From contig BOKX01000001.1 in the NCBI GenBank assembly GCA_016861205.1, positions 895,835-959,834 on the forward strand: 64,000 bases of DNA, read 5' to 3'. The notes below the pieces were generated by a model. It saw nothing but the letters and a program-made list of their open reading frames with translations, was not told the DNA's origin and did no database searches. The stretch comes from Patescibacteria group bacterium. GTDB lineage: Bacteria > Patescibacteriota > Microgenomatia > UBA1400 > PJMF01. The translations under genes and the position numbers were made by a program. Positions 3,378-64,000 of the stretch are shown here, piece by piece (positions within the stretch are counted from its first letter, which is position 1; every line of letters begins with the position of its first letter).

Positions 3378-4040
3378 ATGGTTAACACGACATTTAACGT
3401 CAAACCTCGTCAAGAAGTAGGGAAGGCTGTCAAGAAATTGCGCCAAGCCCGTCAAGTTCCAGCCCAGATTATGGGTGCCATGGAACAGCCCATCTCAGTG
3501 GTGTTTGGTGAATCAGCTTTCATCAAGTTGTACGAGTCAGTTGGTGACACTGGTCTGGTGTATGTGTCTGTGGAAGGGGAGAGTAAACCCCACCCAGTTC
3601 TGATTGAGGAAGTGCAAGTTGACCCATTAACAGGTCAAGTTATGCACGTTTTGCTCAAGCAAGTGAACCTAAATGAAAAGATCGAGGCCGAAGTGCCAGT
3701 TGAACTGGTGAACGGCAAAGAAATCCCAGGTGCTGTTGTGATCACCGTCCGCGACGTGATCGAGGTGCAAGCCTTGCCAGCCGACCTGCCAGAGAAATTC
3801 GAGATCGACATCTCCGGTTTGACTGAAATTGGTCAAGATATCAAGTTTTCACAACTCAACTACGACAAGAGCAAAGTTAAGCTCATGCTTTCCGACGAAG
3901 AGCTCGACACCCCAGTGGTGCTGCTCCAGGCTGTGAAAGAAGAGGTCGAGGAAGCTCCAGTCGAGGCGCCAGCTGAAGGTGCCGAAGCCGGTGAGGCCGC
4001 GGCTGCCCCAGCTTCTGAAGCCGAAGCCAAGTCAGAGTAA
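3378..4040 (+). CDS. rplY: 50S ribosomal protein L25 / general stress protein Ctc
   Basis: N-terminus MVNTTFNVKPRQEVGKAVKKLRQARQVPAQIMG... and the overall L25/Ctc beta-barrel pattern. Acidic Ala/Glu-rich C-terminal tail typical of the Ctc form. Confidence 0.85.
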   Translation: MVNTTFNVKPRQEVGKAVKKLRQARQVPAQIMGAMEQPISVVFGESAFIKLYESVGDTGLVYVSVEGESKPHPVLIEEVQVDPLTGQVMHVLLKQVNLNEKIEAEVPVELVNGKEIPGAVVITVRDVIEVQALPADLPEKFEIDISGLTEIGQDIKFSQLNYDKSKVKLMLSDEELDTPVVLLQAVKEEVEEAPVEAPAEGAEAGEAAAAPASEAEAKSE

Positions 4041-37007: not shown

Positions 37008-37036
37008 AGAAAAGTGAGGCTCCGGCCTCACTTTTT
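37008..37036. terminator. Bidirectional intrinsic terminator between convergent genes
   Basis: Stem GTGAGGC / GCCTCAC with loop TCCG, flanked by an A-run (GAAAAG) on the left and a T-run (TTTTT) on the right. It overlaps the stop codon of the minus-strand ATPase gene. Confidence 0.65.
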
Positions 37037-39667: not shown

Positions 39668-40537
39668 ATGAGCACCCTAATGTCACATTTTGCCGTTTAC
39701 TCGGCTCAAATCATCCGGATTCGCTTTCCAAACCTGCGCCAACGATTATTGGGTGAGGTAGTACTTAGAGTGGTAACTGAGCCGATGTGGCCAGTTTTGC
39801 CACCTGTCCAGGCTACCAAACCAGCTGCCGTAGCAGCTTTGCCACGTTCAGTCAGCACAACCTGGCTGTCTGGCCTAGCTACATGGAAGCGGCGAGTGGG
39901 CCTGTTCCTATCTGGAATTCTCATTGTGATTGCCTTGGTTACAACCAGTTTTTGGGCAATTCCTGCCGTTTATTATCATTTTTTTCCAGCTGAGTCGGTG
40001 GCGATTGTGCCAACTGAGAGTAGTACCCCATTGGGAGGTGACTTCACGGCTGGTGCACAATCTGAACAGGTTTTAGCGAGTTACTTACCACCTCAAGATG
40101 AAACTCTGCCAGAGGGGCAGTGGATTGTGATTCCCAGAATCGGAGTTCGCACTGAGTTGCAGGCTGACGCTCAACCAGAAGAAGCCTTGGCTACCGGAGT
40201 CTGGATGGTGCCGGGATATGGCTCACCAGGCGACAAGACCCAGCCAATGATTGTGGCGGCCCACCGGTTTGGTTGGAAGTGGTGGTGGGAGAGTGACTAC
40301 TGGAAGTACCATTCTTTCTACTTGCTGCCGGATCTAGAACCAGGTGACACAGTCGAGATCATCGCAGATCAGCGCAAGTGGGTTTACGAGATTTATGCAG
40401 GCGAAGAGGGTGAGGAAATCACTGATTATCAAGCTGACTTGATTATGTATACCTGTAAGTTTTTGAACTCTCCGTTGCGACACTTCCGTTATGCCCGGCT
40501 ACTCGATCCGACCCAAGACTCCCAGAGCTTGAATTGA
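39668..40537 (+). CDS. Sortase-family transpeptidase (class E-like) with an N-terminal TM anchor
   Basis: TM helix VGLFLSGILIVIALVTTSFWAI. Catalytic-His region MIVAAHRFG. TLxTC-like Cys motif DLIMYTCKF. Conserved Arg downstream (RHFRYARL). Confidence 0.65.
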   Translation: MSTLMSHFAVYSAQIIRIRFPNLRQRLLGEVVLRVVTEPMWPVLPPVQATKPAAVAALPRSVSTTWLSGLATWKRRVGLFLSGILIVIALVTTSFWAIPAVYYHFFPAESVAIVPTESSTPLGGDFTAGAQSEQVLASYLPPQDETLPEGQWIVIPRIGVRTELQADAQPEEALATGVWMVPGYGSPGDKTQPMIVAAHRFGWKWWWESDYWKYHSFYLLPDLEPGDTVEIIADQRKWVYEIYAGEEGEEITDYQADLIMYTCKFLNSPLRHFRYARLLDPTQDSQSLN

Positions 40538-50202: not shown

Positions 50203-53200
50203 TTAGTTCAGTAGCCACCAGGTGAACTGGACGTCTCGGTCGGGCAGGGCGGTGTCAAAGCCGACCACGAACTGACCTTCTTTTTCAGAGGTGCTTGGGT
50301 TTTCAGGAGTGATTGACTTGACGTACAGGACTTGGTTGTTGGTTGAGCCGAGTGGGGTGACCTGGACGACTGTTTCACTGGTGATTTGCTCAGACTTGAT
50401 GACCATTTCGGTCTGGCCTTGTTTGACGACAGCCTTACCTGAGGTCTTGGTGGTTTCGGCTTGGTTCTCGTTACCACTCAAGTCTTGGGCGCCGACCCCG
50501 ATACCGCCAGCGAAGTTGGCGCGGCCGTCGGCTGAGATGGTGGCGACTGGGGTGCCAAGCTCGTCGACGATCTCGAAGCGTGACTCACGGACTTCGCCAG
50601 ACTCGGTGGCTACGCCAGCGACTTTGACTTGCAATGGGTTGGTGAAGTCAGTGGGTTGGATCAGATCAGTTAGGAGGCTGTCCTCAACAGTCACGGTACC
50701 AGCCACGGTTAGGTCACCCGTCACGATGACTTGGCCGTTTGACTTCAAGCTAAGTAAGCCAGCCATCATCGACAGCGTACCTTGGCCATGAGGTTGAATT
50801 TCAAACACGGTCTCGGCTGGGTTAGCAGAGTCTAAGTAGCTCAAGACACCATCGCTCAGCTGGGTACCTTCACCGATCAGCAGTTGGTTGGCAATGCCCA
50901 CTGAGTCACCGAAGTAGGCAGAGCCGTTGACCTCGAAGTAGCGGTTGATGAAGGCAGCATCGGCACCGATTGAGACGTCAGTGCTGGCTAAGTTGAGGTC
51001 GCTGAGTGACTTGTTCATGATGGCAGAGCCAGTGGCCGAGTAGCCAGCTTGGTCGATGACTGAGAATAGGGAGGCGACTGAGGCAGCGGTGGAAGCGTTA
51101 TCAGGTTCGCCGAGCAGTTGAGCCAACAGAGACGGTTTCTGAATGGCGGTGGCCACTTTGTCGTCAAAGCCGTCAATGTTGTCGGCGTACAAAGTGCCAG
51201 AGATGGTGGCGGTGATCAACTCAGCGGTGTCCGCCTTGATCTGTTCGAACTCAGCCACTTTGCCCTCAAGTGCAGCGATACGAGCTGAGGTGGCGTCGAG
51301 TTGACCGGAGATAGTAGCGGTACCACTGATACTGGCATTGTCACTCAAGAGTGAGCCTAGGCGAGAGGTGCCGTTGACAGTCAAGTCGCCCGCCAGCTGG
51401 GTGTTGCCTTGGTCGTCGATGCTGGCCACTGGTTGGTTGTTTTGGTTAGTGACCTGGAAGCGGTCATTGTTGTCACTCAGTTTGACGTTAACAGTGTCGC
51501 CAACTGGAGTGATGAGGTCAGTTTTAACCTCTGGAGTTTGGATGCGGACCTCAGCCAAGAGCTGGCGAGTGCGAATCACGCCGGCTTTTAGGTTGGCCAC
51601 GGCTAGTTCAGCAAAAGCATCAACTTTCTCGAGCAGATTGCCGTTGTAGCTGGCATTGTAGGTGGCGGTGGCCACAGGAGCGGAGTCATTGCCAGCGATA
51701 GTTACGTCACCGCTCGAAGTAATCCGGATGCTTGGGTCGAAGTAGGAGGTGTTAACAAACACCATGACTTTTCCGGTGCCGGCCTGTGGTTCGGGCAGAG
51801 GTTGACGCTCTGATGAACCAGCTAACCGATCCTGCTCAACTTTAAGTGTTCCAGCTGAGAGTTTATGGGTGCCATCATAAGCTTCAAGGGCATAGCCGAT
51901 AATTCGGCCGGCCTTGGTAGCTTTCATGGCCACACCTGGTTGACTGGCAGAGGTTAATGGATCGCCAACGGCAATTGGGCCATTTTCTAGACTGACCTTG
52001 ACTGGCACGCGTCCAACCAAGGCCACTGGTTGAGTATCAACCACTTCGCCGCCCTCAGTATCGCCCCATCCCGCTACTAATCCTGGGTCAGTGGAAATGA
52101 CGCCTACTACCATGCTGTCATAACTGACGCCTGAGCTCTTGCTTAGGGTTTTTCCAGGTTCAGCAACAGGTGCTGTGGTAATGGCTACCAAGTCACCCTC
52201 TTCAGCGTTGCCCAAAACTTTGTACATTTCGGCTACGTCAGCACCGCCACCGTTCCAGGCTCCATCAGCGTAAGCCTGACCATTGGTTTCAAGACGATAT
52301 TCATTGTCTGGGGTGCCGTCTTCGTCAGTTCGCAGTAGCATAAAGTACTCGTTCGCGGTGCCCACATCGTTGGTTGACCAAGCTGACATAACCTCAAATG
52401 TGCTAAGCAAGTGCGATCCAACACTGGTGCCCGTCGCCCCGAACGGTGTGCCACCTTCACTGGTTACCCACAATCGTGTTCCACCACCTTGAGTGGTGCC
52501 GATAGCCACCGAGCCATTGTTCCTGACTGACATGACGTGGCGGCCACTAACGCCTGCCCGGAAGATATCGCCACTACCATTGTTTTCAACTCGCAAGCCG
52601 ACACCACTGGTTGAGCCTGAGAAGGTGGCAATTGGTAGTGATGAGGAGTAACCACGAACATCAACAGCTCCCAGCAGATTAGCATTTGGGGTGTTAACAC
52701 CCATGCCACCACTGTTGGTGAGGACAAAGCGGGTGGTACCTGAGGCTGAGGCAGTAAACAGGTCACCATTAGACTCGGTTTGGTTAATGGTCAAGACAGC
52801 CTTGCCGAAGGCAGGGGTGTCGCCACCAGTTTGGAGGTGGAGTAAACCTAAGTATGATCGACTGTCACCGAGGATAGTCCGATTTGTGACCCCATCAATA
52901 TGGAGAGCGTAGGAACCGTTGGAGCCGGGGTCACTCAGGTAGTAGTTATTGAGGATAAACTCATCAGCGCCACTATCAGCTGAAATTTGCCATAAGTTAC
53001 CTAGCTCAGTTGCTCCATCATTGTGACTAAAGATGATGTTTGAGGCACCACCGTCAACTGAACTCATCTGGAACTCAGCGTACGGATCGCCACCAGCGAA
53101 GGATCGGAACATCATGGTGGCTCGAGTAGAAGCTCTCTCAAAGTGGAGTCCGTAGGCAGGGGCGGTAGTGCCGATACCCAGGTCACCGTTACCGAGCAAA

Positions 53201-56200
53201 GTCAGATCGGCCGCGTTGTCATTGTTGCGAACTTGGAAGACAGTTTCGGCGGCGGCCAAATCAACTACCCCGGTGCCCGATCGGCGGGCGCCAGTTAGCA
53301 TAATCATCGGTACAGTGTCTGTGGGGTTGGTAGAGCCAGAGTAGCCGCGCAGTTCGAGTGCCTGTGCGCCAGAGACTTGGTCAGCAAACCCAGTTAACAT
53401 GGCTCCACCGTTGGTGCCAGAGATTGCCCCGATGTGGAAGATGGTGTTCGTGGTGGTCACGCCAGTGATGCCGTGCGCCACATCAGCATCACCCATGGCA
53501 AAGGTGGTGTCACCCGAAGTGGTGACCAAGTGCAAGTTGTAGGTCGGGGCAGTAGTGTTGATGCCAACTCGACCGACGCCGTTAAGCGGGTTGAGATAGA
53601 TGTTGCCGGTAGTGGCGCCGCCAATGGTTATAGGTCGGCTACTTGTCGATCGAATGGTACCCCCAGATCCACCTAGAGTGATGTCACCAGAAATAGAAGC
53701 TGTTGGAAAACCACCACTGACGTTATTTAGGAAGGCAAAGTTAGCACTGTCAGTGGCTAAGCCACCAACTAGGAGGTCGAGCGTGTTGTTGGTGGGACTC
53801 AGTGCGCCCTGATACAGTCGCCAGTAGGCACCCAGCGAAGTTTCTGGGTTGGCCCAGGTGAGGGTGCCTGAACCGTTCGTCTGGAGAATGTAGCCAGCTG
53901 TTTGTGATGTTGGCCAGGTGTAGGCTAAGTTGCCAAAGACCGTCGTGCCATCTACTTCCAAGTCACCTTGAATGTAGAGATCATTGTCAGTGCTCATACT
54001 GCCGGAGGCACCAGCCGTTGAATCAGCCATCAGGTTGTAGTTCACCGTACTGCCATTACCGCCGATGTTCAAAATCGCATCAGCACCGAAGATGGCATCG
54101 CCAGCAATGTTAAGAGCGGTGCCAGTAGCAGCTGGGTCGAGATAGAAGGCTTCGTTAGCCATATCAGAAAAGCGCTGAGCGATGGCGTACCCATTAGTGT
54201 CAACTCGGAAGCGTGTCACGCCAGAAACTGAGGCTGACAGAATGTCGCCTGAGTTGAGCTGGTCGATGACCAGGGCCGCATTGGAGCTGTAGTTGCCAAC
54301 CACATGGAGATCTGCGTGGGGAGCGGTGGTGCCGATCCCGACGTTGCCATCTGAGTTAATATGAAGTCGGTCAATCCCACTAGTCATGAGGGCAACATCT
54401 GTCCATGAACCATGAGCTGCAAAACGGGCAGTGGTTCCCGAGAAATCAACTGTTTGTGCACCGCCGAGTCGGAAATCGGTGGAAGCGTTGACATATCCAT
54501 TGCCAGTAATGTTGCCGACGACTTGCAGCGCCTGGCTTGGACTCGTCGTCCCAATCCCGACGTTGCCACTGGGGAGAATGGTCATCGCGGTCGTCCCATC
54601 AGACACAAAACTCAGATTACCGGTGTTGGCGTCACCGAGTGTCAGAGTGCGCTGGTTGGTGGTGGCAATCACCCCAGCTGAGTTGAGCGTAATATTGCCC
54701 GAGATACTGGCAGTAGGTGTACCTGAGTTGACATTGATGAAGGCAAAGTCAGCGCTGCTCGAGGCGCTCCCGCCGATGAGCAGATCAGTGGTGTCGTTAG
54801 CGGGAGAGAAGGCACCATCAATGATTCGCCAGTAGTTAACAGCTTGAGAGGTGGAAGCGATGCCCACCCAGGTACTGCCATTATAGTAGTAGGGAATGTT
54901 GTCACCCGTGTTGTAGTACATCGAGCCGGCACCAAGTGCAGTCGGGTTTGAGCCAAAGTTGCCGATGCGTGTCTGGCCTGCAATCGAGACGTTTTGACTA
55001 AAGTTAAAGTAATCACTGGTCGTGTTGTAGCTCATGATGCCCTCATCACCGCTTGAGCCGATGTGGAGGCTACTGGGGCCAAGGTACAGATCTTGCCAGC
55101 GTAAGGTGTCGCTGCCCAAGTCGCGAGTGTCATTCCCATCGGGCAAGAGGTTGCCCACAATTTCCACGGTGCCAGCGGTCAGGCTAAGGGTGCCATCGAC
55201 ATCGTTGTCGATAGTTTCGCCGTTTTGGAATGAGATGTCGGTAGTGACGTCAGCGTCGGCGATGTTGATAGCGTTGACGATGCCACCGGAGATGTTACCG
55301 CTGTTGGTAATGTATATGGCATTTTGCACGACCGTTGAGCCTGTGCCTGAGGTATCTTGGTTGTCGAGTCGGAGAAGCGCAGTGACGTTGTTGTCGGTGG
55401 TGTTAGAAGTACCCATGTTTCTGACTTGAAGAGCGTACTCGGTGTTTCCAGAAGTTGATGGATTGTTGGTTAATCGGACATCAACCCCGGCCAGGTCCGT
55501 CGTGCCGCTACTGTTGCTGTTGGTAACGTTGAAAATGTTGGCAGTTATGCCGCCAGTCCCAGCTGGGTTATAGGTGGATGAAAAGTACGAGGCAATTCCG
55601 GTGGTCATAGTGTTGGAAATTACAGAGTAGCCAATTCCAGCTGTACCTGTGTACTCCTGTTGCCAGGGGTAACTTCCTTGACTCAGCAAGAATTGATTAT
55701 CAAGCGTGGGACTGTCAACGAACTCGGTGAAATCAATACAGTCGGTACAGCTGAAGTCGCTGGCGGTGACGGTAGCATTGGTAAAGTTGACCACAGTGCC
55801 ATCAGCTTCGAGGTTGCCCTCGATGTACAGGTCGTCGTCACTGTCCATACTGGCCGAAGCGCCGGCAGTTGAGTCGCCGATCACGTTGTAAGCCACGTCT
55901 GAGCCTGAGCCACCGACGTTGAAGGTGTTGGTATCGGTAAAGATCAGGTCGCCGCCACCGATATTGAGGGTCAGGTCACCAGTGGTGGTTTGGAGGGTGC
56001 TGGCTTGATAGAGAACTAGATTGCCGGCGTTACTTAAGCTCAGTCGTCGTGTGCCAGAAGCAGAAGCAGCCAGGATATCGTCAGAGCCAGTTTGATTGAA
56101 CATGGCTAGGGCGTTGCCAGCGGCATTTGCCGTGCCAGTGACGACAAATCTGCCCAGAGGTGCAGTGGTACCAAAACCAACGTTACCACCTCTAGTCATA

Positions 56201-59200
56201 GCCATGTAGTTGCCGGCGGTGGTGCCAGTATTCAAAAATGTACCAAACGTGACGTAGGCGTTACCGCCCCCAGAGTTGTTACCGCCTTGAATGCCAGCAG
56301 ACAACATATTCCCTTGACCGTCGCCGCCGCCAGCCCTGATTAAGAATGGACTACTTGGACCGCCACTGTTGGCCCAGATGCCGCCATTGACGGTCAAAGT
56401 GTCATTGATATTGCCGGAGGTAGTGTTGATACCGACCCGACCACCAGTTGGGTTGAGGACCAGTGTCCGGTTGAGGCTGGTCGTAATTACACCATCTCCA
56501 GTCAGTGACAAGGCGTTGCCCGCCGTGGTGCCAGACATACTGGCGGTGACGTTGCCAGAGCCGTTGATGTTGGTCACGGCAAACCGGGCGCTGGCAGTGG
56601 ACTGGCCCCCGATTAACAGATCCACAGTCGAGTTAGCCGGGTAGAGGGCGCCGTTGCCTTGGTACCAGAACACATTGGCTAGAGTGGCCACTGTGGTCCA
56701 GCTTAGGACACCTGAGCCATCGGTGCTCAACACCTGGCCAGTGCTACCAGCGGTGTCTGGTAAGGTCAGTGTGACATCTGACCCGACCGTCGCGGGAGCC
56801 TGCAGTGCCACGTAGTTGGTGGAGTCGGAGTCAGCTAGGCGGAGGTCGCTCTGAGCTGGCAAGAAAACGTTGTCGTTTAGGTCAATCTGAGTTGAGTTGG
56901 AGCTCAAGCGCAAGTTACCACTCACATCTTCAATGACGTGGGCGACGCTGTCGATAACTGAAATAATTCCGCTGCTGTTGATCTGGAACTGTGAAGTGCT
57001 ACCCACTGAGAAAAGTGAGTCTGGAGTGGTATCTCCACCCACGCCCACGTTGCCAGCACCAGTGATGGTCATGCGGTTGTTAGCGCCGTTGGTGTAGAAG
57101 TTGATAGCCGCGTTCTGGCGGTTGGCAAAACCGATTTCTGAACCGTTAGAAGTTCCAAAGTCAGCAGTAGGTGTTCCAGAAGTATCAGTAAACTGAATGG
57201 CGCCACCAGCGCTACCTGCGATTACAAGTGACGTATAGTCACTGCCACCGGTAGAACGCAGCCACAGCCGACTCACTTGACTTGCACCACCCCAACCCGT
57301 TGCAACGTTGGTTGGAGCAGTGGTGCCGATACCGACGTTATTCAAGTTGCGGTCAAAGGTCATGATGTTACTCTCAGAACCACCAGTTACCCCTTGAACG
57401 TACAAGCGGCCAGATGAAGCATCTTCTAAGTTGAAAGAGTAGCCAGCATCACTATTTTGCTGTTTTAGGTACAAAAGCTGTGTGTTGCTGCTGACGCCAT
57501 CAGCATCCACAATGGTCAGCACTCGGTTAGAAGAGGTAGTTCCAATGCCGATGTTGCCATCTGGACGCATGGTCATCAAATGGGTGCCATCTGAGTAGAA
57601 GTTAATGTTTCCGGTGTTGCTATCACCAATATTGAGTGGTTGCTGATTAGTAGTAGCAATGACACCGGCAGAGTTAAGGGTGAGATTACCAGAGATACTG
57701 GCGGTGGGAGTGCCACTATTCAGATTGATAAAGGCAATATCTGCGCTGGCACTGGACTGACCACCAAAGAGGACATCGACAGTTGAGTTGGCTGGGTAGA
57801 GAGCACCATTGCCTTGGTACCAGAAGATGCTGGATAGCGTGGCAGCGCTGGTCCAGCTCAGGACACCTGATCCATCAGTGGACAACACTTGGCCACTGTC
57901 GCCATCAGTATCTGGCAAGGTGAGGGTGTAGTTGGTGCCGATGGTGGCGGGGGCTTGAATCGCGGCGTAGTTGGAAGAGTCGCTATCGCCAAAGCGCATG
58001 TTACCTTGAGTGTTGATGAAGATGTTTCCACCAGCAATCTGCAATCGTTCGTTAATAGTAGTAGTACCAATACCGATGTTCTGCGAACTGTTAATGCGCA
58101 TGGCGGTGGTGCCGTTGGTGGCAAAGCCCATGGCGTCGATGTCGTGCATGTAGCTGATGACACCCATGTCTTCGCTATCTTGGTCTGAAAAGCTTAGGAT
58201 TTGGTGAGCGGTGTTGCCACTGACCCACTTGAGGCGATTGGTGCTAAAGGCCTCGAGTACCAACATGTCGTTGCCATCCAGTGAGTAGCCGCGGGTGCTG
58301 CTGCTGCGGTAGAGGTGGGCAAAGCCCTCTGGGGCGGTGGTCCCGACCGCGATCCGGCCACCTGAGCCGTTGTTGGGCATCATGATGATGTTACCGGTGG
58401 TGGAGCCGCCGAGGGTGAGAGAGCGATTGTTGGTGGACTGGATGGCGCCACTGGTGTGGTTGAGCGTCAGGCTACCGGCGATCGAAGCGGTGGGGGTGCC
58501 TGAGTTGTTATTCAAGAAAGCAAAGTTGGCACTAGCCGAAGCCTGACCACCGAAGAAGACGTCCACGGTTGAGTTCAGTGGGAAGAGCGAACCATTGGTT
58601 TGGTTCCAGTAGTTGGTGCCGGCGGCTACCCACGAGAGGACGCCAGAGCCGTCGGTAGACAGAACTTGCCCACTGTCACCGTCATTGTCAGGCAACGTGA
58701 GGGTGTAGTTGGTTCCGATCGTGGCCGGAGCCTGGATAGCAGCGTAGTTGGTAGAGTCGGAGTCGGCTAGGCGGAGGTCGCCCTGGGCGTTGATCTGGAA
58801 GTTACCGGTAGCAAGTTCGAGGGCGTTGGTAGGAGTAATAGTGCCGATTCCGAGATAGCCATTTTCATCAAAGGCGCTTAAACCAGTGCCACTCGAGTTT
58901 TGCAGTTCAAGTAAGTTATTAGTCTGTGACGTAGCAGCTCTGATTTTTACCGCAATTTCATTGGCTGTTTGGTTAAAAACTGCAAAAAGATGATCTGTTT
59001 CAGTACTGATGGTACCGACATTGACGGAGTCTCGTGCGTTACCGTAAATCGTGAAGAGATTGTCGGTTGATCCGCCATCAGCACGGAGAATGGTGAAAGT
59101 GTCAGAAGCTCCGATGTTGTCTGGGTTCAGCCAGATTCCTGGTGCTCCAGCACCACCTAATGCAACCAAGCGTGCGTTAACACCACTGGTTCTGTTTCCA

Positions 59201-62200
59201 TATAGGCTGGTTGTTTGATTACTAATTGACAGTTTATCGGTCACACCCGCATCACCACCTGGACTCGTCCGAATCACAAATGATTCTCCGTTCAAAATAT
59301 TGATTGTTGGGTCAGTTGTCCCTCGGAAGGAAAGTGTGCCCGAGAGTGATGCTGAGCCAGCTACGTCAAGTGTGGCCGTGGCATTGGTACTATCAAATCC
59401 TGGCCCGATGCCCCAGTTACCAGCCGAACTCACAGCACCAATCACACTGTTGTTCAGAGCAAAGAAAATCTGACGGCCACTAGCAGCATTGAGGTACGTG
59501 CTCCCGACATTCGATTGCAGCAGGGCGTAATTACCAGTGGCTGAGTGATCTAGTGCCTGGTTGCCAAAGTAGGCATAGTCAGTGTTGGCTGGCCAGGCAC
59601 CGGTTTCGGCAGCTCCAATTCGACCGGTGGTAGTGATGCTGCCAACGGCAAAGTCAAAGTCAGGGCTGGAGGTGCCGATACCCACTCGGCCACCGGTGGC
59701 ATTCAGGGTGAGTGTTCGGTTAAGGCTGGTTTGAATGGCGCCGTCGCCATTGAGTGACAGAGCATACCCGGCGGTGGTCCCAGACATAGTGGCAGTGACT
59801 GCGCCAGAGTTGACGTTAGTCACCGCGAACCGGGCGCTGGCGGTAGATTGACCACCGATGAGCAGATCCAGAGTTGAGTTCACCGGGTAGAGCGCACCAT
59901 TACCAGTGGACCACAAGCTGTTACCGATGGTAGTGCCGTAGATTTCATTAATGGCATCTACGAGGCCTTGGGGCAAACCGGCATCCAGAGCGGTGTCAGC
60001 TACAGTCAGAGCGATGTTGCCGGTGCGGGTGTCGCTCAGATACAGCTCTCCGTTGCTGCTCAAAACCAAGTTGCCAGAGGAGTTAGCTAAGGCGTGGGCC
60101 ACGCCACCAATGGCGGCGATGTTTCCAGAGGAGTTAACCTGGAACAGATCGCCATTGCCGACGGTCAGCATGGCTGCAGGTGAAGTGTCTCCGATACCGA
60201 AGTTGTTGTTGAAGAGTGTAGCCAGTGTGGCATTTCCAACTTGGAAACCAATTGAGCTGGCAGCGGCTGTATCAAGCACGAGTGAACCAGAACTGAGCAA
60301 CTCAACAGAACCGGAACCTGTATTCTGGATAGTCAGTTCACCAGCTGAAGTGTCAAAGTAGGCGTTGCCCACGACGTGGAGTGTTTGCCCAGGCACGGTG
60401 GTACCCAAACCCAACAGACCAGCGTTGGTCAAGACCATTCGGTTTGTACCAGAGGCAGAGGCGGCGATGATGTTGCCAGAATTGGTCTGGTCAACCACCA
60501 GGGCAGCGTTGGAACCGTAGTTACCGACTACATGGAGATCTGCGATGGGTGAAGTGGTACCGATGCCAAGATTTCCGTTACTATCGAGAGTCATGAAGGC
60601 AGTACTTGATTGTCGGAAGACAAGCCTTCCGCCACCGTATGAGCTAGCATTACCAGTTGAGTACAAATTAAAACTAGTTCCGCCGGCGCCAGTATTTGAA
60701 AGGCCAACCATCGGTAGAATAGATGAAATCTCCAGCTGATAAGCTGGAGTCGTGCTGCCAATTCCGACATTACCTGTTGGCAAAAGTGACATGACCTCAG
60801 TTGCAGGGAAACCTTGGTTGTATCGATTAGCATAGCTGTATGAGCCAATAGCTAATCGTGAAGCCGTATCGGTGAAACCTAGTACAGCTCCGCTGGTGCC
60901 TGTCCAAAGATTCACAAACCTACTGGCGTCGGTTCTTTCAAAAACGAAACCTGGTGTGCCAGTCCCGGCAGTGACTCTGACTGGGAAGGCAGGAGAGCCG
61001 GAAGGTGCTGCTGATGGACCAACAACATCAAAAAGAGTGGCAGGAATCGAAGTCCCAATCCCCACATTCCCATTCTGGGTAATCACAAACCGGTTTAAGC
61101 CTGAGCTGGAGGCGGTGAAGATGTCACCCACACCTGAGTTATCGGCTACCAAGGTGGCAAAGGCGGTAGCACCAGAGACAGAAGCAACCGGCAGCGTCCC
61201 AGACATGGCCCTCAGGTCTAAGGTGCCTCTGGGACTAGTTACGCCATTTTCACCAATTCCTACCAATCCAGCTCCAGTAATGGTTACTCGTGAGAGCGCG
61301 TTGGTAGCCAAAGTTAGGGGAGTGTTTTCTCGGTTATAAACCAAGGCACCACCATTGTATCCGAGAGTCAGCCCATCGTTTTCGCTATGTCCAGTGGCGC
61401 TTGAAGTGATACTGATGTACGCCAAAGCACTATTTTGTGCAGAAACTTGAAGTTTCGAGCGAGGACTAGTTGTGCCAATTCCCACATTGCCATCGTTTGG
61501 ATTAAGGAGCAACGAGCGACTTAAGCTTGTGGCGATAGTACCATCACCAGTCAGGTATAAGCTGTTCCCAGCTGTTGAACCCGAAAAACTAGCCGTTGGG
61601 GTGCCGCTATTTACATTCAAGAACTTGAAGATGGCACTGGCACTCGACTGGCCGCCAATCAAGACATCCATGGTTGAGTTCTTGGGATAAATGACACCGT
61701 CACTGGCTGACCAGTGCACGCTGCCAGCACCAGCCAAAGCTGGATCTACCCAGCTTAAGGTGCCACTGCCATTTGTAGACAAAATATACCCAGAGGCTTG
61801 GGAGCCGGGCCAAGTGTAGGTGATGCCATTGAAAGCGGTGGTCCCAGTGGCAAAGTCAAAGTTGCCGCTAGATGAGATGGTCAGCCGATTGTTGCTGCCG
61901 CCGGTTCGGAAGATTAAGGAGCCAGTGGCGTTGGTAGCAGAAACGTAGTTCTCAGCGTTTCGTGAGAAGGCCAGGGTATTGGCTTGGAGCGTGGAGTTGT
62001 AAGCAGCTGCCTGAGTGACAGTCAGAGCCCCGTCACTGCCAAAGTAGGCCAGGTTGGTACCACTGCTGTTGTTGATGTCAGCGATGTGGGCAGTGCCACT
62101 CGGGCCACCCTGAACAGTCAGTGGCACGCCGCCGGCGTAGGTGGCTGAGATGGTGGCACCTGGAGAATAGACGTAATCTCGAGAGATCACCCCACCGATA

Positions 62201-63636
62201 CCGTCGGCATCTAAAACTATGTCGCCATTGCTACCACTAGCAGTTTGGAAGAGGAGGCTACGACCTTCCAGAGTAAAAGTCCCAGAAAGAGACCGAATCT
62301 CCGGGTTAACTTCGCCTAAAACGACACTCCCACCACCGTCCATAAACAGGATGGTGTTCACTGTGGCTGCCCCGGTGGCAGAGATGGGGTACCCCTGCAA
62401 AGTTTCGGCGTTCAGAGCGTAAGCTACCGTGCGAATTGGTTGGCGAGGGGTCAAGGTCTCGCTGCCGACTCGGACTTCTAGGTAGGTGCTGGCGTTTTCC
62501 GAAAAGACAAACTCGTTGATTTCAGCGCCACAGGTACCGTCACCCAGATTAGTGTTGAAAATGCCATCCTGATCGGGAGTCACACTACAGCTGCCTTGCC
62601 AGAGAAGTGGGCCGGCATCACCTGGGGTGTCAGTGTAGGCGCCGTTACTGGGGTGGTTGTAGATACTGAACACCATCGAGGTGCTGCTCGTGATGGGGTT
62701 CTGGTTGGTATCAGTCAGACGACCTTGGAAGGACAATATCCGATTCGGCTCGACAGGTGTGCTGGGATAAGCGAGTGGAGTGTTGGCTGTCTTGAAGAAC
62801 TGTTGGTATCCAAACACACCTAATCCCAAGATAAATAACACCAAGATAGCCAAGTTAAGGTAGGTCACCCAACCTTGACTGGCTTTGAAGACGGAATTAA
62901 GGCGTTCAATGCCTTGTCTCCAATTTTGTCGAGTTGAGACTTTTTTGACTCGAGGTCGAGGCGGAATAATTTCTACTTGAGGTTTTTTTGGTTCCAGAGC
63001 TGGCTGGCTGACTTTTGGCTCAGCTGGTTTGATTGGAGCTGGTTCTGGATTCGGCTTGATGACAGGCATCTCAGCAACTGCTTGTACAGCCTGGACAGTT
63101 ACTGGGACCTCGAGCTGGAGTAACCCGTGTTCCTCACACCACTGCCAGAAATGCTGCAAACTCGAGGTTTTACGCTTGATACTAGAGGGTTGTAAGCCGT
63201 TTTGATCTTGGAATCGCTCAAAAGCGGCGATTTGGTTTTTGGTAAGGCCAACGCTGACCACTGAGGTCCGACAAAAAGTAAAGAATTGGCTGATATCATT
63301 GCGGTAATTTCGAACAGTGGAGTTTGAGCACTTGTTAAGCTTGAGTGCTAAAACAAACTTTGGTAAAGCGACTTCGATCTGGGAAGCTGGAAACTGGTTC
63401 AGAAACTGAGTAGCCAGTTGGTAGTGAGTGTCCGTTGGCTGTCGGTCGGCCGGTAGCTGACCGATGAAGGTGGCCCAGCCCTCAGCAGACCAGCTGCTGG
63501 GGTCAGCTTGCCAGCTACAAAACTCTGTCAAGAGGTGAGCTAGCTGACTGGCTTCTGCCGGCAGCACACCAGAGCCTTGAAAGAATGTCACGGCGGCGGC
63601 AAGTGGGGAAATCGTGCGCGGAGGTTGGGCAAGCAT
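50203..63636 (-). CDS. Giant surface protein (4477 aa): cytoplasmic tyrosine-recombinase-like N-terminal SAM/core-binding domain (no catalytic domain), Pro-rich linker, single TM helix, ~4200-aa repetitive extracellular region with phage-tail-fibre-like repeats
   Basis: Intact 13.4-kb ORF. N-terminal aa ~85-175, LKLNKCSNSTVRNYRNDISQFF...QPSSIKRKTSSLQHFWQWCEEHGLL, parallels XerD LEKNLAENTLNAYRRDLSMM...KATSSARLLSAVRRLFQYLYREKF. TM helix WVTYLNLAILVLFILGLGVFGY at aa 256-277. Repeated modules ...SDSTNYAAIQAPATIGTNYTLTLPDNDGDSGQVLSTDGSGVLSW... (x3) and ...YTWPGSQASGYILSTNGSGTLSW.... Highly Gly/Ser/Thr/Asn-rich beta-repeat composition. Confidence 0.85.
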   Translation of the reverse strand: MLAQPPRTISPLAAAVTFFQGSGVLPAEASQLAHLLTEFCSWQADPSSWSAEGWATFIGQLPADRQPTDTHYQLATQFLNQFPASQIEVALPKFVLALKLNKCSNSTVRNYRNDISQFFTFCRTSVVSVGLTKNQIAAFERFQDQNGLQPSSIKRKTSSLQHFWQWCEEHGLLQLEVPVTVQAVQAVAEMPVIKPNPEPAPIKPAEPKVSQPALEPKKPQVEIIPPRPRVKKVSTRQNWRQGIERLNSVFKASQGWVTYLNLAILVLFILGLGVFGYQQFFKTANTPLAYPSTPVEPNRILSFQGRLTDTNQNPITSSTSMVFSIYNHPSNGAYTDTPGDAGPLLWQGSCSVTPDQDGIFNTNLGDGTCGAEINEFVFSENASTYLEVRVGSETLTPRQPIRTVAYALNAETLQGYPISATGAATVNTILFMDGGGSVVLGEVNPEIRSLSGTFTLEGRSLLFQTASGSNGDIVLDADGIGGVISRDYVYSPGATISATYAGGVPLTVQGGPSGTAHIADINNSSGTNLAYFGSDGALTVTQAAAYNSTLQANTLAFSRNAENYVSATNATGSLIFRTGGSNNRLTISSSGNFDFATGTTAFNGITYTWPGSQASGYILSTNGSGTLSWVDPALAGAGSVHWSASDGVIYPKNSTMDVLIGGQSSASAIFKFLNVNSGTPTASFSGSTAGNSLYLTGDGTIATSLSRSLLLNPNDGNVGIGTTSPRSKLQVSAQNSALAYISITSSATGHSENDGLTLGYNGGALVYNRENTPLTLATNALSRVTITGAGLVGIGENGVTSPRGTLDLRAMSGTLPVASVSGATAFATLVADNSGVGDIFTASSSGLNRFVITQNGNVGIGTSIPATLFDVVGPSAAPSGSPAFPVRVTAGTGTPGFVFERTDASRFVNLWTGTSGAVLGFTDTASRLAIGSYSYANRYNQGFPATEVMSLLPTGNVGIGSTTPAYQLEISSILPMVGLSNTGAGGTSFNLYSTGNASSYGGGRLVFRQSSTAFMTLDSNGNLGIGTTSPIADLHVVGNYGSNAALVVDQTNSGNIIAASASGTNRMVLTNAGLLGLGTTVPGQTLHVVGNAYFDTSAGELTIQNTGSGSVELLSSGSLVLDTAAASSIGFQVGNATLATLFNNNFGIGDTSPAAMLTVGNGDLFQVNSSGNIAAIGGVAHALANSSGNLVLSSNGELYLSDTRTGNIALTVADTALDAGLPQGLVDAINEIYGTTIGNSLWSTGNGALYPVNSTLDLLIGGQSTASARFAVTNVNSGAVTATMSGTTAGYALSLNGDGAIQTSLNRTLTLNATGGRVGIGTSSPDFDFAVGSITTTGRIGAAETGAWPANTDYAYFGNQALDHSATGNYALLQSNVGSTYLNAASGRQIFFALNNSVIGAVSSAGNWGIGPGFDSTNATATLDVAGSASLSGTLSFRGTTDPTINILNGESFVIRTSPGGDAGVTDKLSISNQTTSLYGNRTSGVNARLVALGGAGAPGIWLNPDNIGASDTFTILRADGGSTDNLFTIYGNARDSVNVGTISTETDHLFAVFNQTANEIAVKIRAATSQTNNLLELQNSSGTGLSAFDENGYLGIGTITPTNALELATGNFQINAQGDLRLADSDSTNYAAIQAPATIGTNYTLTLPDNDGDSGQVLSTDGSGVLSWVAAGTNYWNQTNGSLFPLNSTVDVFFGGQASASANFAFLNNNSGTPTASIAGSLTLNHTSGAIQSTNNRSLTLGGSTTGNIIMMPNNGSGGRIAVGTTAPEGFAHLYRSSSTRGYSLDGNDMLVLEAFSTNRLKWVSGNTAHQILSFSDQDSEDMGVISYMHDIDAMGFATNGTTAMRINSSQNIGIGTTTINERLQIAGGNIFINTQGNMRFGDSDSSNYAAIQAPATIGTNYTLTLPDTDGDSGQVLSTDGSGVLSWTSAATLSSIFWYQGNGALYPANSTVDVLFGGQSSASADIAFINLNSGTPTASISGNLTLNSAGVIATTNQQPLNIGDSNTGNINFYSDGTHLMTMRPDGNIGIGTTSSNRVLTIVDADGVSSNTQLLYLKQQNSDAGYSFNLEDASSGRLYVQGVTGGSESNIMTFDRNLNNVGIGTTAPTNVATGWGGASQVSRLWLRSTGGSDYTSLVIAGSAGGAIQFTDTSGTPTADFGTSNGSEIGFANRQNAAINFYTNGANNRMTITGAGNVGVGGDTTPDSLFSVGSTSQFQINSSGIISVIDSVAHVIEDVSGNLRLSSNSTQIDLNDNVFLPAQSDLRLADSDSTNYVALQAPATVGSDVTLTLPDTAGSTGQVLSTDGSGVLSWTTVATLANVFWYQGNGALYPANSTVDLLIGGQSTASARFAVTNINGSGNVTASMSGTTAGNALSLTGDGVITTSLNRTLVLNPTGGRVGINTTSGNINDTLTVNGGIWANSGGPSSPFLIRAGGGDGQGNMLSAGIQGGNNSGGGNAYVTFGTFLNTGTTAGNYMAMTRGGNVGFGTTAPLGRFVVTGTANAAGNALAMFNQTGSDDILAASASGTRRLSLSNAGNLVLYQASTLQTTTGDLTLNIGGGDLIFTDTNTFNVGGSGSDVAYNVIGDSTAGASASMDSDDDLYIEGNLEADGTVVNFTNATVTASDFSCTDCIDFTEFVDSPTLDNQFLLSQGSYPWQQEYTGTAGIGYSVISNTMTTGIASYFSSTYNPAGTGGITANIFNVTNSNSSGTTDLAGVDVRLTNNPSTSGNTEYALQVRNMGTSNTTDNNVTALLRLDNQDTSGTGSTVVQNAIYITNSGNISGGIVNAINIADADVTTDISFQNGETIDNDVDGTLSLTAGTVEIVGNLLPDGNDTRDLGSDTLRWQDLYLGPSSLHIGSSGDEGIMSYNTTSDYFNFSQNVSIAGQTRIGNFGSNPTALGAGSMYYNTGDNIPYYYNGSTWVGIASTSQAVNYWRIIDGAFSPANDTTDLLIGGSASSSADFAFINVNSGTPTASISGNITLNSAGVIATTNQRTLTLGDANTGNLSFVSDGTTAMTILPSGNVGIGTTSPSQALQVVGNITGNGYVNASTDFRLGGAQTVDFSGTTARFAAHGSWTDVALMTSGIDRLHINSDGNVGIGTTAPHADLHVVGNYSSNAALVIDQLNSGDILSASVSGVTRFRVDTNGYAIAQRFSDMANEAFYLDPAATGTALNIAGDAIFGADAILNIGGNGSTVNYNLMADSTAGASGSMSTDNDLYIQGDLEVDGTTVFGNLAYTWPTSQTAGYILQTNGSGTLTWANPETSLGAYWRLYQGALSPTNNTLDLLVGGLATDSANFAFLNNVSGGFPTASISGDITLGGSGGTIRSTSSRPITIGGATTGNIYLNPLNGVGRVGINTTAPTYNLHLVTTSGDTTFAMGDADVAHGITGVTTTNTIFHIGAISGTNGGAMLTGFADQVSGAQALELRGYSGSTNPTDTVPMIMLTGARRSGTGVVDLAAAETVFQVRNNDNAADLTLLGNGDLGIGTTAPAYGLHFERASTRATMMFRSFAGGDPYAEFQMSSVDGGASNIIFSHNDGATELGNLWQISADSGADEFILNNYYLSDPGSNGSYALHIDGVTNRTILGDSRSYLGLLHLQTGGDTPAFGKAVLTINQTESNGDLFTASASGTTRFVLTNSGGMGVNTPNANLLGAVDVRGYSSSLPIATFSGSTSGVGLRVENNGSGDIFRAGVSGRHVMSVRNNGSVAIGTTQGGGTRLWVTSEGGTPFGATGTSVGSHLLSTFEVMSAWSTNDVGTANEYFMLLRTDEDGTPDNEYRLETNGQAYADGAWNGGGADVAEMYKVLGNAEEGDLVAITTAPVAEPGKTLSKSSGVSYDSMVVGVISTDPGLVAGWGDTEGGEVVDTQPVALVGRVPVKVSLENGPIAVGDPLTSASQPGVAMKATKAGRIIGYALEAYDGTHKLSAGTLKVEQDRLAGSSERQPLPEPQAGTGKVMVFVNTSYFDPSIRITSSGDVTIAGNDSAPVATATYNASYNGNLLEKVDAFAELAVANLKAGVIRTRQLLAEVRIQTPEVKTDLITPVGDTVNVKLSDNNDRFQVTNQNNQPVASIDDQGNTQLAGDLTVNGTSRLGSLLSDNASISGTATISGQLDATSARIAALEGKVAEFEQIKADTAELITATISGTLYADNIDGFDDKVATAIQKPSLLAQLLGEPDNASTAASVASLFSVIDQAGYSATGSAIMNKSLSDLNLASTDVSIGADAAFINRYFEVNGSAYFGDSVGIANQLLIGEGTQLSDGVLSYLDSANPAETVFEIQPHGQGTLSMMAGLLSLKSNGQVIVTGDLTVAGTVTVEDSLLTDLIQPTDFTNPLQVKVAGVATESGEVRESRFEIVDELGTPVATISADGRANFAGGIGVGAQDLSGNENQAETTKTSGKAVVKQGQTEMVIKSEQITSETVVQVTPLGSTNNQVLYVKSITPENPSTSEKEGQFVVGFDTALPDRDVQFTWWLLN
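53600..61900. repeat. Family of diverged intragenic tandem-like DNA repeats (units of ~0.3-0.8 kb, ~70-85% identical) inside the giant gene
   Basis: Clearly related blocks by eye at ~56560-56880, ~57700-58020 and ~58490-58800 (e.g. ...gacacctga.ccatc.gtg...cttggcca.tg...ggtgtagttgg...ggagtcggagtc.gctaggcggaggtcgc...). More diverged copies lie near 53730, 54700, 59830 and 61620. Confidence 0.7.
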
Positions 63637-64000
63637 ATACTCAAACTAGATCATTAGACGTCGGTGGGTTTTTAGTAATCTGGCCAGATGTATTAGACAC
63701 TTTAGACACCACTTCAATCAGTTTAGTTTTCTCGAGAAGCCCAGTCAATCATCGAGTTCCAGGCTAAGTTAAAAAGGCGACCAAATCTGAGTTGAGAAGG
63801 GTCAAGTTGGCCAAAAACAGAGTTTGTTTTCACGCGTTTTCATGAATATCAAACCGACTCAAAGAGTGGGGTTTCCAGGTGGTTGTGGGCAGACTTCTAT
63901 ATATGCCCAATTAGTTTTCCACAGAAACCAGGTGTGGTGTGACGCTTGAAAGTGAGGTGGTGAATGTAGTAAAAATGAAACAGGCCGATTGTGGAGTACT

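Follow-up and report, generated by a model that had tools for sequence, protein, structure and literature searches.

A conserved family of giant patescibacterial membrane proteins with an integrase-type core-binding domain at the N-terminus

Results

A giant open reading frame in the genome of a Patescibacteria group bacterium encodes one of a conserved group of giant type-II membrane proteins from Microgenomates-type Patescibacteria, in which the core-binding (CB) domain of tyrosine recombinases precedes a single transmembrane (TM) helix. The frame occupies 50203..63636 on the minus strand of the window (the whole 64,000-nucleotide stretch of contig BOKX01000001.1 that was analysed), starts with the ATG at 63636 and specifies 4477 amino acids (aa), the length and strand given in a first-pass annotation of the same DNA. 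The family is defined here by one or more CB domains right at the N-terminus, with the TM helix and the motif PLAYPxxPxRPNR no more than ~450 aa further on; by a shared C-terminal region of ~480 aa; and by a divergent PaaX-like gene across a conserved upstream spacer of ~0.5 kb. All three were found for the 4477-aa protein: the CB-TM-motif order, the C-terminal region and the PaaX-like neighbour. A search with the N-terminus matched 166 cluster representatives; 148 cluster representatives have a CB domain, and 81 of these are 1000-7700 aa long.

The fusion of the CB module to a giant surface protein is real. An artefact, in which a CB-only small gene or an untranslated leader had been joined to the giant gene by a sequencing or assembly error or a wrong start codon, would fit the lack of an obvious Shine-Dalgarno sequence ahead of the ATG at 63636 and the second ATG inside the frame, at codon 190. 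An in-frame TAG lies three codons 5' of the first ATG. Against an artefact, gene calling gave the identical protein on both of two independent contigs, Logan contig DRR258781_2214 (L070) among them; a 97% identical variant of 4514 aa (P0001) retains the fusion; among 69 species-level genomes (Pacebacteria, Woesebacteria and Beckwithbacteria), nearly every one has the module and a long ORF in a single reading frame; alignments with homologues begin at residues 1-3; and 73 of the 81 long members have, after their last CB domain, a hydrophobic segment comparable to the TM helix. The in-frame fusion across genomes, contigs and homologues refutes for practical purposes a gene-calling, assembly or start-codon error, to which we assign almost no probability, and it excludes the 5' untranslated region or separate small ORF that the first-pass annotation had named beforehand as fatal to its own proposal.

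Public databases hold many homologues, some of 4900-5200 aa, machine-named 'site-specific integrase'. The name is misleading for homologues without a catalytic domain. Our literature search found no paper describing the fusion of a CB domain to a giant surface protein; the earlier suggestion of an undescribed family thus stands for the searchable literature, but not for the databases.

The CB (SAM-like) domain lies at aa ~87-170 (63127..63378, minus strand). Significant matches of the first 300 aa to Phage_int_SAM_1 (PF02899; aa 94-167, E=8.8e-8, 32.8 bits) and SAM_4 (27.9 bits, cut-off 27) confirmed the integrase-type domain recognised earlier, and Phage_int_SAM_1 also scored 27.8 bits on the full protein, above its gathering threshold of 22.3 bits. 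Matches at the level of the fold were significant too, which disposes of the other refuting outcome named in the first-pass annotation, the absence of any significant HMM or structural hit. The catalytic half is missing, as the first-pass annotation had also seen. The NCBIfam XerC and XerD models were matched only at model positions 3-105 of about 295, with an equivalog score of 42 bits (cut-offs 330-335). The complete 4477-aa sequence gave no match to Phage_integrase (PF00589) at E<=1, nor any at E<=10 to a profile made from the catalytic domains of five real recombinases; the top score of this profile for any long family member was 6.1 bits (E=0.07). The CB domain and the TM helix lie just ~80 residues apart. 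Judged by its sequence, the protein is no recombinase and could not perform recombination chemistry. A Pfam search returned no wHTH or Trans_reg_C domain, and the fold is that of a CB domain, not a winged helix.

The first-pass annotation had extended the CB domain over the first ~175 residues, but aa 10-81 (63394..63609, minus strand) form a separate domain in the AlphaFold2 (AF2) model, with helices at 11-21, 26-42, 51-60 and 69-81 and pLDDT of 81-96. This four-helix domain, predicted to be cytoplasmic, recurs in 15 of 31 aligned homologues, about half of them, and comparison with the CB sub-alignment by hhalign gave a probability of 2%, with no detectable similarity. After the CB domain comes a Pro- and charge-rich linker (aa 171-253; 62878..63126, minus strand), described earlier as Pro-rich, which is predicted to be flexible and cytoplasmic (pLDDT 43-69, secondary structure absent until aa 236). 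It includes the Pro-rich stretch PNPEPAPIKPAEPK at aa 196-209, aligns poorly and varies in length across the family, and is strongly basic just before the membrane (8 K/R and 1 D/E in aa 226-255). The TM helix or signal anchor (aa 254-282 in the AF2 model; 62791..62877, minus strand) has its hydrophobic core at aa 257-275 and pLDDT up to 96, and provides the only Kyte-Doolittle hydropathy above 1.6 (19-residue windows) in the whole protein, in line with the single helix first reported. No N-terminal signal sequence is present. Together with the hydropathy and the charge bias around the helix (8 K/R before, 3 after), this points to a single-pass, N-in topology with the N-terminal domains in the cytoplasm, as proposed before, and the remainder outside.

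Just outside the predicted membrane boundary lies the family signature PLAYPSTPVEPNRI (62737..62781, minus strand; consensus PLAYPxxPTRPNR), in which PLAYPSTPVEPNR at aa 286-299 fits the broader pattern PLAYPxxPxRPNR; alignment A1 shows no variation at A289, P291 or R299. The predicted extracellular body (aa 301-3999; 51640..62736, minus strand) has a conserved membrane-proximal part followed by a variable, Gly/Ser/Thr/Asn-rich, fibre-like region, and gave no Pfam match. Whereas aa 251-500 are common to 98 homologues, windows in the middle are common to just 0-40. Residues 284-4477 comprise 43% G+S+T+N and 0.8% K, with 4 Cys. The ~4200 aa of extracellular repeats reported at first are thus borne out as a very long, predicted non-cytoplasmic part, but 'repeats' is a loose term for 8 GNVGIGT-like and 5 LYPxNSTxDxLIGG-like motifs around a variable middle. 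The C-terminal ~480 aa (50206..51639, minus strand) are conserved and end in VQFTWWLLN, with the family consensus FNWWIVN (F-N/T-W-W-[IL]-[VL]-N); in about 50 homologues the match stops no more than 0-5 residues short of the C-terminus, in agreement with alignment A3. The C-terminus (DRDVQFTWWLLN) has no LPXTG sorting signal, and the whole protein has no second hydrophobic segment. A sortase gene is present in the window at 39668..40537.

Both motif blocks ascribed earlier to the CB domain are there, the first as S104-x-x-T107-x-x-x-Y111-R112-x-D114-I115-x-x-F118 and the second as R155-K156-T-S-S-L-Q-H-F163-W-Q-W166, to which the pattern first given was only an approximation. The family signature reads T-[IV]-[RK]-N-Y-R-S-D and S-I-x-R-K-L-S-S at the start of helices B and D. 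In alignment A1, T107, N110, Y111 and D114 are invariant, S113 is near-invariant, and conservation reaches 90% or more at R155 and K156. CB segments are basic, with a median net charge of +5 and a positive charge in 91% of 203 segments. Two tandem copies occur in 28 of the 81 long homologues; the 4477-aa protein has one. These data bear on a passive role, in which the N-terminal domains would bind no specific ligand and would act as a stably folded 'stopper' in the cytoplasm, setting the N-in orientation and holding a very long Sec-exported fibre in place; the CB fold would then be a chance acquisition from the remains of a recombinase gene. Lacking an LPXTG-type signal, the protein relies on its lone N-terminal anchor helix, and CB-only proteins and multi-CB recombinases among the more distant matches show that the domain shuffles freely. 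However, any small folded domain would serve as a plug, and so the persistence of the polar and basic residues N110, D114, S113, R155 and K156 across proteins otherwise about 30% identical, and the repeated duplication of the CB unit, are hard to explain in this way. We regard a passive stopper as improbable.

The giant gene is preceded by a sigma-70-like promoter (TTGACT-17-TAAACT; 63720..63748, minus strand; about 85-110 nt 5' of the ATG by consensus scan). Alignment A4, which covers 22 species, shows its block ATTGAC...CTAnACT to be conserved. Between promoter and start lies a conserved promoter-proximal or 5'-leader motif, GTGTCTAATACATCTGG (63684..63700, minus strand; family consensus GTCTAATGAATCTGG), often with a second TCTAAT ahead of it and TTAGAC after it; a comparable motif stands about 40-60 nt ahead of the start in 36 loci. 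The spacer of ~530 bp is conserved at the DNA level between species whose proteins are about 30% identical and contains repeated short motifs, among them the DnaA-box-like 9-mer TGTGGAAAA (63915..63923, minus strand; TTTTCCACA on the plus strand). TTWTCCACA is about 37-fold denser in the spacer than in the flanks (57 loci). The remainder of the spacer lies outside the window (6023-6554 on the Logan contig L070), and some conserved upstream blocks are degenerate in the window's own organism (alignment A4).

In many loci the 9-mers TTTTCCACA and TGTGGAWAA form inverted repeats about 210 bp apart. With the recombinase descent of the CB domain, they could suggest recombination-linked phase variation, the CB domain binding the inverted repeats of an invertible promoter or competing with a recombinase there. 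All 22 of 22 aligned spacers are, however, colinear in one orientation, the conserved promoter lies outside the repeat-bounded segment, the repeats fit the DnaA-box consensus, and the left repeat is degenerate in the window's organism. No recombinase gene was found in the conserved neighbourhood, nor elsewhere in the window with the CB profile. Phase variation is accordingly very improbable.

A divergent gene for a protein of ~250 aa lies at a median of 557 bp upstream in 60 loci, with weak PaaX_M matches in 11 of 17 members (best E=7.5e-6). On the window's own contig, beyond the window end, the corresponding 266-aa gene is 532 bp upstream of the giant gene, and its product shares 49% identity with the nearest family member aligned in A2. 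There is a serious rival to a DNA-binding role: the CB and preceding helical domains may form a protein-docking module that holds or releases a cytoplasmic partner at the membrane, with a soluble factor in the cell thus placed under the control of the external fibre and its state. The PaaX-like regulator would be the most obvious partner and a Xer-type recombinase another; the logic is that of RsgI-SigI and PtsG-Mlc, in which a membrane protein holds a soluble factor. The aa 10-81 domain has no DNA-binding signature, the lone CB domain lacks the clamp that recombinases use on DNA, and in the tetramers of recombinases the contacts between protomers involve CB domains. On the other side, the CB segments are strongly basic, with their conserved motifs in the blocks that open helices B and D, and the simpler explanation for a divergently placed regulator gene is that its product controls the giant gene. 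Docking is somewhat unlikely in our estimate.

Discussion

The best explanation, tentatively preferred at a little under even probability, is that the CB domain reads DNA as a membrane-tethered head and links a surface fibre to the chromosome. The helical and CB domains would sit in the cytoplasm with the fibre outside, and the CB domain would keep its recombinase job of reading DNA in the major groove, on the leash of a long linker. In XerH, the N-terminal four-helix bundle and helix alpha-F enter the major groove and make most of the base-specific contacts (PMC5241119). Such a head might belong to a ToxR-like one-component transmembrane regulator, in which contact or tension outside alters DNA binding inside, with the operator-like conserved sites beside its own gene as candidate targets; alternatively, it might serve as a DNA-to-membrane tether. 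The first-pass annotation had put forward anchoring to nucleoid or DNA, recombination-linked phase variation and a co-opted interaction module as no more than possible roles. The CB fold and homology, the conserved signature, the basic CB segments, the predicted N-in orientation and the disordered linker of ~80 aa were counted for a DNA-binding head. The tandem CB domains are as expected for the binding of two half-sites, the repeated motifs of the spacer provide candidate target sites close by, and the retention of the fusion in nearly all of the 69 genomes argues for selection on the cytoplasmic module. A lone CB domain, without the C-shaped clamp formed with a catalytic partner, may bind DNA weakly. 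The upstream motifs fit DnaA boxes better, nothing ties them to the CB domain, and they could be operators of the adjacent PaaX-like regulator; the conserved CB surface residues would suit a protein partner equally well.

Known systems share parts of this architecture. Xer and phage-integrase recombinases (XerC, XerD, XerA, lambda Int and IntI) have the N-terminal CB domain in common with the giant protein, which has neither their R-K-H-R-H/W-Y active site nor their strand exchange; its CB domain is instead preceded by an unrelated helical domain and followed by the linker, the TM helix and ~4200 extracellular residues. The recombinase-derived DNA-binding regulators MrpR/YopR of SPbeta (PDB 8a0a) and SroF of phi3T (PDB 9rd5) are soluble phage repressors of ~320 aa that have no membrane anchor or extracellular part and retain a degenerate catalytic domain. 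Having kept both recombinase domains, they are imperfect precedents for a CB-only module. The membrane-bound one-component regulators ToxR, TcpP and CadC have the layout predicted for the giant protein, with a cytoplasmic N-terminal DNA-binding-type domain, a flexible juxtamembrane linker, one TM helix and an outer C-terminal domain, but theirs is an OmpR-like winged helix with an outer domain of about 100-250 aa, and the likeness is one of topology only. Sortase-anchored LPXTG adhesins of the Gram-positive type differ in having a C-terminal LPXTG, a hydrophobic stretch and a basic tail. Other very large CPR surface proteins are, as predicted for this one, single- or few-pass and surface-targeted in ultra-small, presumably host-attached bacteria. 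In Absconditicoccaceae, the cell surface is the preferred destination of very large proteins (PMC13059738). In the literature searched, no recombinase-type cytoplasmic domain was reported for them.

The naming of homologues without a catalytic domain as site-specific integrases can inflate counts of mobile elements in patescibacterial genomes. A large part of bacterial diversity belongs to the Patescibacteria, whose cultivated members are found attached to other microbes; the means by which they sense hosts and hold on to them are, to our knowledge, poorly understood. The giant surface proteins described here form a syntenic family that spans the lineage and, with a DNA-reading-type domain at the predicted cytoplasmic end, offer a concrete, testable candidate link from surface to chromosome. 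In its full form, that a functional, sequence-specific DNA-binding head made from half a recombinase couples a micrometre-scale fibre to the chromosome of an ultra-small episymbiont, as a contact- or tension-sensing regulator or an envelope-to-chromosome tether, possibly acting at the conserved sites beside its own gene, the proposal is speculative and, we judge, unlikely. If this full proposal were true, these proteins would be trans-envelope signalling devices of a new class, and might be the means by which such bacteria sense attachment to a host.

The giant open reading frame and its start

The giant protein is encoded by 4477 codons on the minus strand (50203..63636). Its start codon is ATG 63636, and a stop codon in the same frame (TAG) lies three codons before it. 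Use of this start is supported by homologues that align from residues 1-3, and in nearly all of the 69 related loci described below a long ORF continues in frame from the N-terminal module. The first-pass annotation had reported a recombinase-like domain fused to a giant surface protein, and on these grounds the fusion does not result from a misplaced start codon or from an untranslated 5' leader; that it is an artefact of any kind is scarcely credible. The identical protein was recorded on two Logan contigs, one of which (DRR258781_2214 from run DRR258781, hereafter L070) reaches 6.5 kb farther upstream than the window.

The window comes from the chromosome of a Patescibacteria/CPR-type bacterium with a small genome. 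Its gene content includes DUF4012, L25, LeuRS, VanW, PGK, S1, RadA-like, Rho and Obg, and type IV pilins, a sortase and LysM/M23 proteins are also encoded. Other features are a CarboxypepD_reg-domain protein of 1626 aa (24024-28904, minus strand), a 1446-aa protein lacking any Pfam match (14282-18622, plus strand) and a 694-aa TrwB/TraG-like type IV coupling protein (37028-39112, minus strand). At many genes in the window a -10-like TAnnnT hexamer has its end about 6-8 nt before the ATG without a Shine-Dalgarno sequence, as at the starts at 6888(-), 34797, 42201, 46680, 50132(-), 49320(-) and 39668, which suggests that leaderless or very-short-leader mRNAs are frequent here.

A recombinase core-binding domain without a catalytic domain

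The presence of a core-binding (CB) domain, the SAM-like DNA-reading domain of tyrosine recombinases, at the N-terminus was confirmed by several comparisons. When the first 300 amino acids were searched against Pfam, Phage_int_SAM_1 matched at aa 94-167 (E=8.8e-8, 32.8 bits against a cut-off of 22.3) and SAM_4 also exceeded its cut-off (27.9 bits versus 27); with the full-length protein, SAM_1 was still above cut-off at 27.8 bits. Matches to the NCBIfam XerC and XerD models were confined to the first ~105 model positions. A PDB search with the N-terminus as a single sequence returned only noise and a profile was needed: an alignment of 31 family N-termini, used as the profile, matched XerD (1a0p), XerA (5hxy) and 3nrw. 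The AlphaFold model computed on this alignment had pLDDT values above 90 over aa 10-170 (81-96 within aa 10-81). In it, two helical domains, at aa 10-81 and aa 87-169, are followed by a disordered linker and then by a long helix, aa 254-282. The same proteins took the top ranks in a Foldseek search with the whole model, with weak E-values.

The domain had been placed in the first ~175 residues; it is indeed there, and its fold spans only aa ~87-170. The pattern given for the second of two conserved sequence blocks is only approximate: the actual sequence reads R155-K156-T-S-S-L-Q-H-F-W-Q-W. Residues 10-81 form a separate four-helix domain that was found in about half of the aligned relatives. 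Its sequence does not detectably resemble CB (hhalign probability 2%), and the possibility that it is a degenerate second copy of that domain was discarded on sequence grounds. The N-terminus of PDB 9i5v chain 14 (401 aa), labelled 'Ribosome-associated translation inhibitor RaiA', matches the family profile (E=4e-6) in the manner of a typical Xer-type CB domain; the database sequence has probably been fused or mis-joined.

No catalytic domain follows, as the first-pass annotation had stated. The Pfam Phage_integrase model gave no match at E<=1 across all 4477 residues, and a catalytic-domain profile built from five genuine recombinases among the distant matches found nothing at E<=10 in the giant protein; its top score among long family members was 6.1 bits (E=0.07). 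Only ~80 residues separate the CB domain from the membrane helix.

Predicted membrane topology and the predicted extracellular part

The sole hydrophobic segment of the giant protein has its core at aa 257-275. The 30 residues that precede the helix include eight K/R and one D/E; three K/R and one D/E follow it. Given this charge bias, the single hydrophobic segment and the lack of an N-terminal signal sequence, a type-II arrangement is predicted from the sequence, in which the helical domains would be cytoplasmic and aa 283-4477 would lie beyond the membrane, in agreement with the single N-in helix proposed previously. Gly, Ser, Thr and Asn together make up 43% of the predicted outside part, and Lys 0.8%. 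This part contains four Cys and carries eight GNVGIGT-like and five LYPxNSTxDxLIGG-like motifs. It had no Pfam match in the full-protein scan, and the C-terminus has no LPXTG-type end. A Peptidase_G2-like identity for aa ~3795-3960 was supported neither by that scan nor by PDB sequence search.

A family of giant relatives

Giant relatives with the same N-terminus (the CB-TM family) came to light in a full HMMER comparison of aa 1-290 with 1.84 billion cluster representatives: 166 of these matched at E<=1e-3, and 80 reached E<=1e-10. A word-index protein search with the N-terminal 300 aa found no match, and with the alignment it found just four short CB fragments. For most of the better HMMER matches, the protein was 2000-7700 aa long and the match lay at its N-terminus. 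Among the 81 representatives of at least 1000 aa, 53 had one CB domain and 28 had two in tandem, and a hydrophobic segment followed the last CB domain within 450 aa in 73 of the 81. The median net charge of the CB segments was +5. Tandem members include P0002, P0004, P0005, P0009, P0012, P0017 and P0021, among others, and in some, such as P0002, the preceding helical domain is duplicated together with the CB unit. Among the distant matches, P0135 and P0084 are real recombinases that contain at least two CB domains, and P0127 and P0128 are CB-only.

A second scan, of one genome per GTDB species, identified the 69 related loci. In many of them the ORF exceeds 3500 aa or runs off the contig; in four exceptions it stops after 160-317 aa. 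Pacebacteria, Woesebacteria, Beckwithbacteria, Microgenomates and 'Patescibacteria group' all appear in the record titles. Many loci are labelled 'uncultured Pseudomonadales bacterium', and 'Vitreimonas sp.', 'Limisphaerales' and 'Methylococcaceae' also occur. These off-lineage names look unreliable, and the Pseudomonadales label appears to be a deposit artefact because the loci share the family neighbourhood and one has the isolate name HK-STAS-PATE-15.

Just outside the membrane, a PLAYPxxPxRPNR motif is common to the family, and the ~200 aa after it are common to 98 homologues. The last ~480 aa are also conserved, with ~50 homologues matched to within 0-5 residues of their own C-termini, and the middle of the protein is variable.

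Conserved upstream genes and spacer

Related loci share their upstream gene order, which is the same on L070, the window's own contig. A divergent ~250-aa gene (L070 5222-6022, minus strand, just outside the window) is present in 60 loci at a median of 557 bp upstream. Farther upstream lie genes for a ~680-aa Big_13/CarboxypepD_reg membrane protein with internal hydrophobic segments (48 loci), a ~355-aa WxLIP-like protein (45 loci) and a ~285-aa protein (42 loci); these form a conserved surface-protein gene cluster (L070 2-4523), syntenic in 42-48 loci. Genes downstream of the giant gene are not conserved: the pentapeptide-repeat and 308-aa genes, considered as partners, were absent from all 15 of the loci with a complete giant gene. 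In 11 of 17 members the divergent gene product gave weak matches to PaaX_M (the PaaX central, Cas2-like domain; best E=7.5e-6); it probably regulates transcription at the giant-gene locus. A possible role for the N-terminus, less likely than the reading proposed below, is as a docking site holding a soluble factor, such as this PaaX-like regulator, at the membrane.

The ~530-bp spacer between the two genes (window 63637-64000 and beyond; L070 6023-6554) is conserved at the DNA level across 22 aligned loci although the flanking proteins are ~30% identical between species. DnaA-box-like TTWTCCACA 9-mers number 47 in 31.8 kb of spacers versus 32 in 792 kb of flanks, a ~37-fold higher density, and further conserved blocks are ACCCGAA, GCCTGGTA, CTTCACATAATACA and ATGAAAAnnCGTGAAAA. 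The spacer contains a sigma-70-like promoter (63748..63720, minus strand) and a promoter-proximal or 5'-leader motif, GTCTAATGAATCTGG (63684-63700, minus strand; 36 loci). Frequently, another TCTAAT lies ~10 nt 5' of this motif and an inverted TTAGAC lies 3' of it. The motif might function as an operator or form an RNA hairpin. Transcription is predicted to begin ~75 nt before ATG 63636. The window organism has a second GTCTAATGA ~20 nt before the giant gene's ATG (63613-63660 region, minus strand), and the gene shows TAGTTT at -12..-7 in addition to the conserved promoter ~100 nt upstream. No Rfam match was found in the spacer at E<=1, and no coherent reading frame for a conserved small ORF. 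The DnaA-box-like motifs and a dif-like TTATGTGAAG raised the possibility that the spacer is oriC or a terminus/dif site; neither was supported, as GC skew had the same sign on both sides in 49/49 loci. In the window, plus-strand skew is positive in nearly every 2-kb bin regardless of gene orientation, placing the giant gene on the C-rich, presumably lagging, strand, and the upstream skew of the same sign in those 49 loci suggests a conserved head-on orientation for this 13-kb gene. An invertible switch was also rejected: all aligned spacers are colinear with no inverted order, which makes a role in phase variation very improbable.

Proposed function

From the observed anatomy and conservation we infer a function as follows. 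Across the family the CB signature is kept where helices B and D begin, and so is the positive charge; the domain is often doubled and hangs on a flexible leash of ~80 aa below the membrane. A membrane-tethered DNA-binding head, coupling the surface fibre to the chromosome, is tentatively the most likely reading; such a head would be a transmembrane regulator of the ToxR-like kind or would tether DNA to the membrane. The same N-terminus might instead serve as a ligand-free cytoplasmic stopper, which we consider unlikely.

The family had been thought undescribed. No paper describing the architecture was found in the literature searched; homologues are already in databases, with those of 4918 and 5205 aa named 'site-specific integrase' by NCBI and one of 5466 aa named 'phage integrase N-terminal SAM-like domain-containing protein'. 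The first-pass finding is confirmed and has been extended: CB-TM proteins have a new domain architecture made from known parts, which defines a sizeable, syntenic family in one Patescibacteria branch that has been mis-named in databases.
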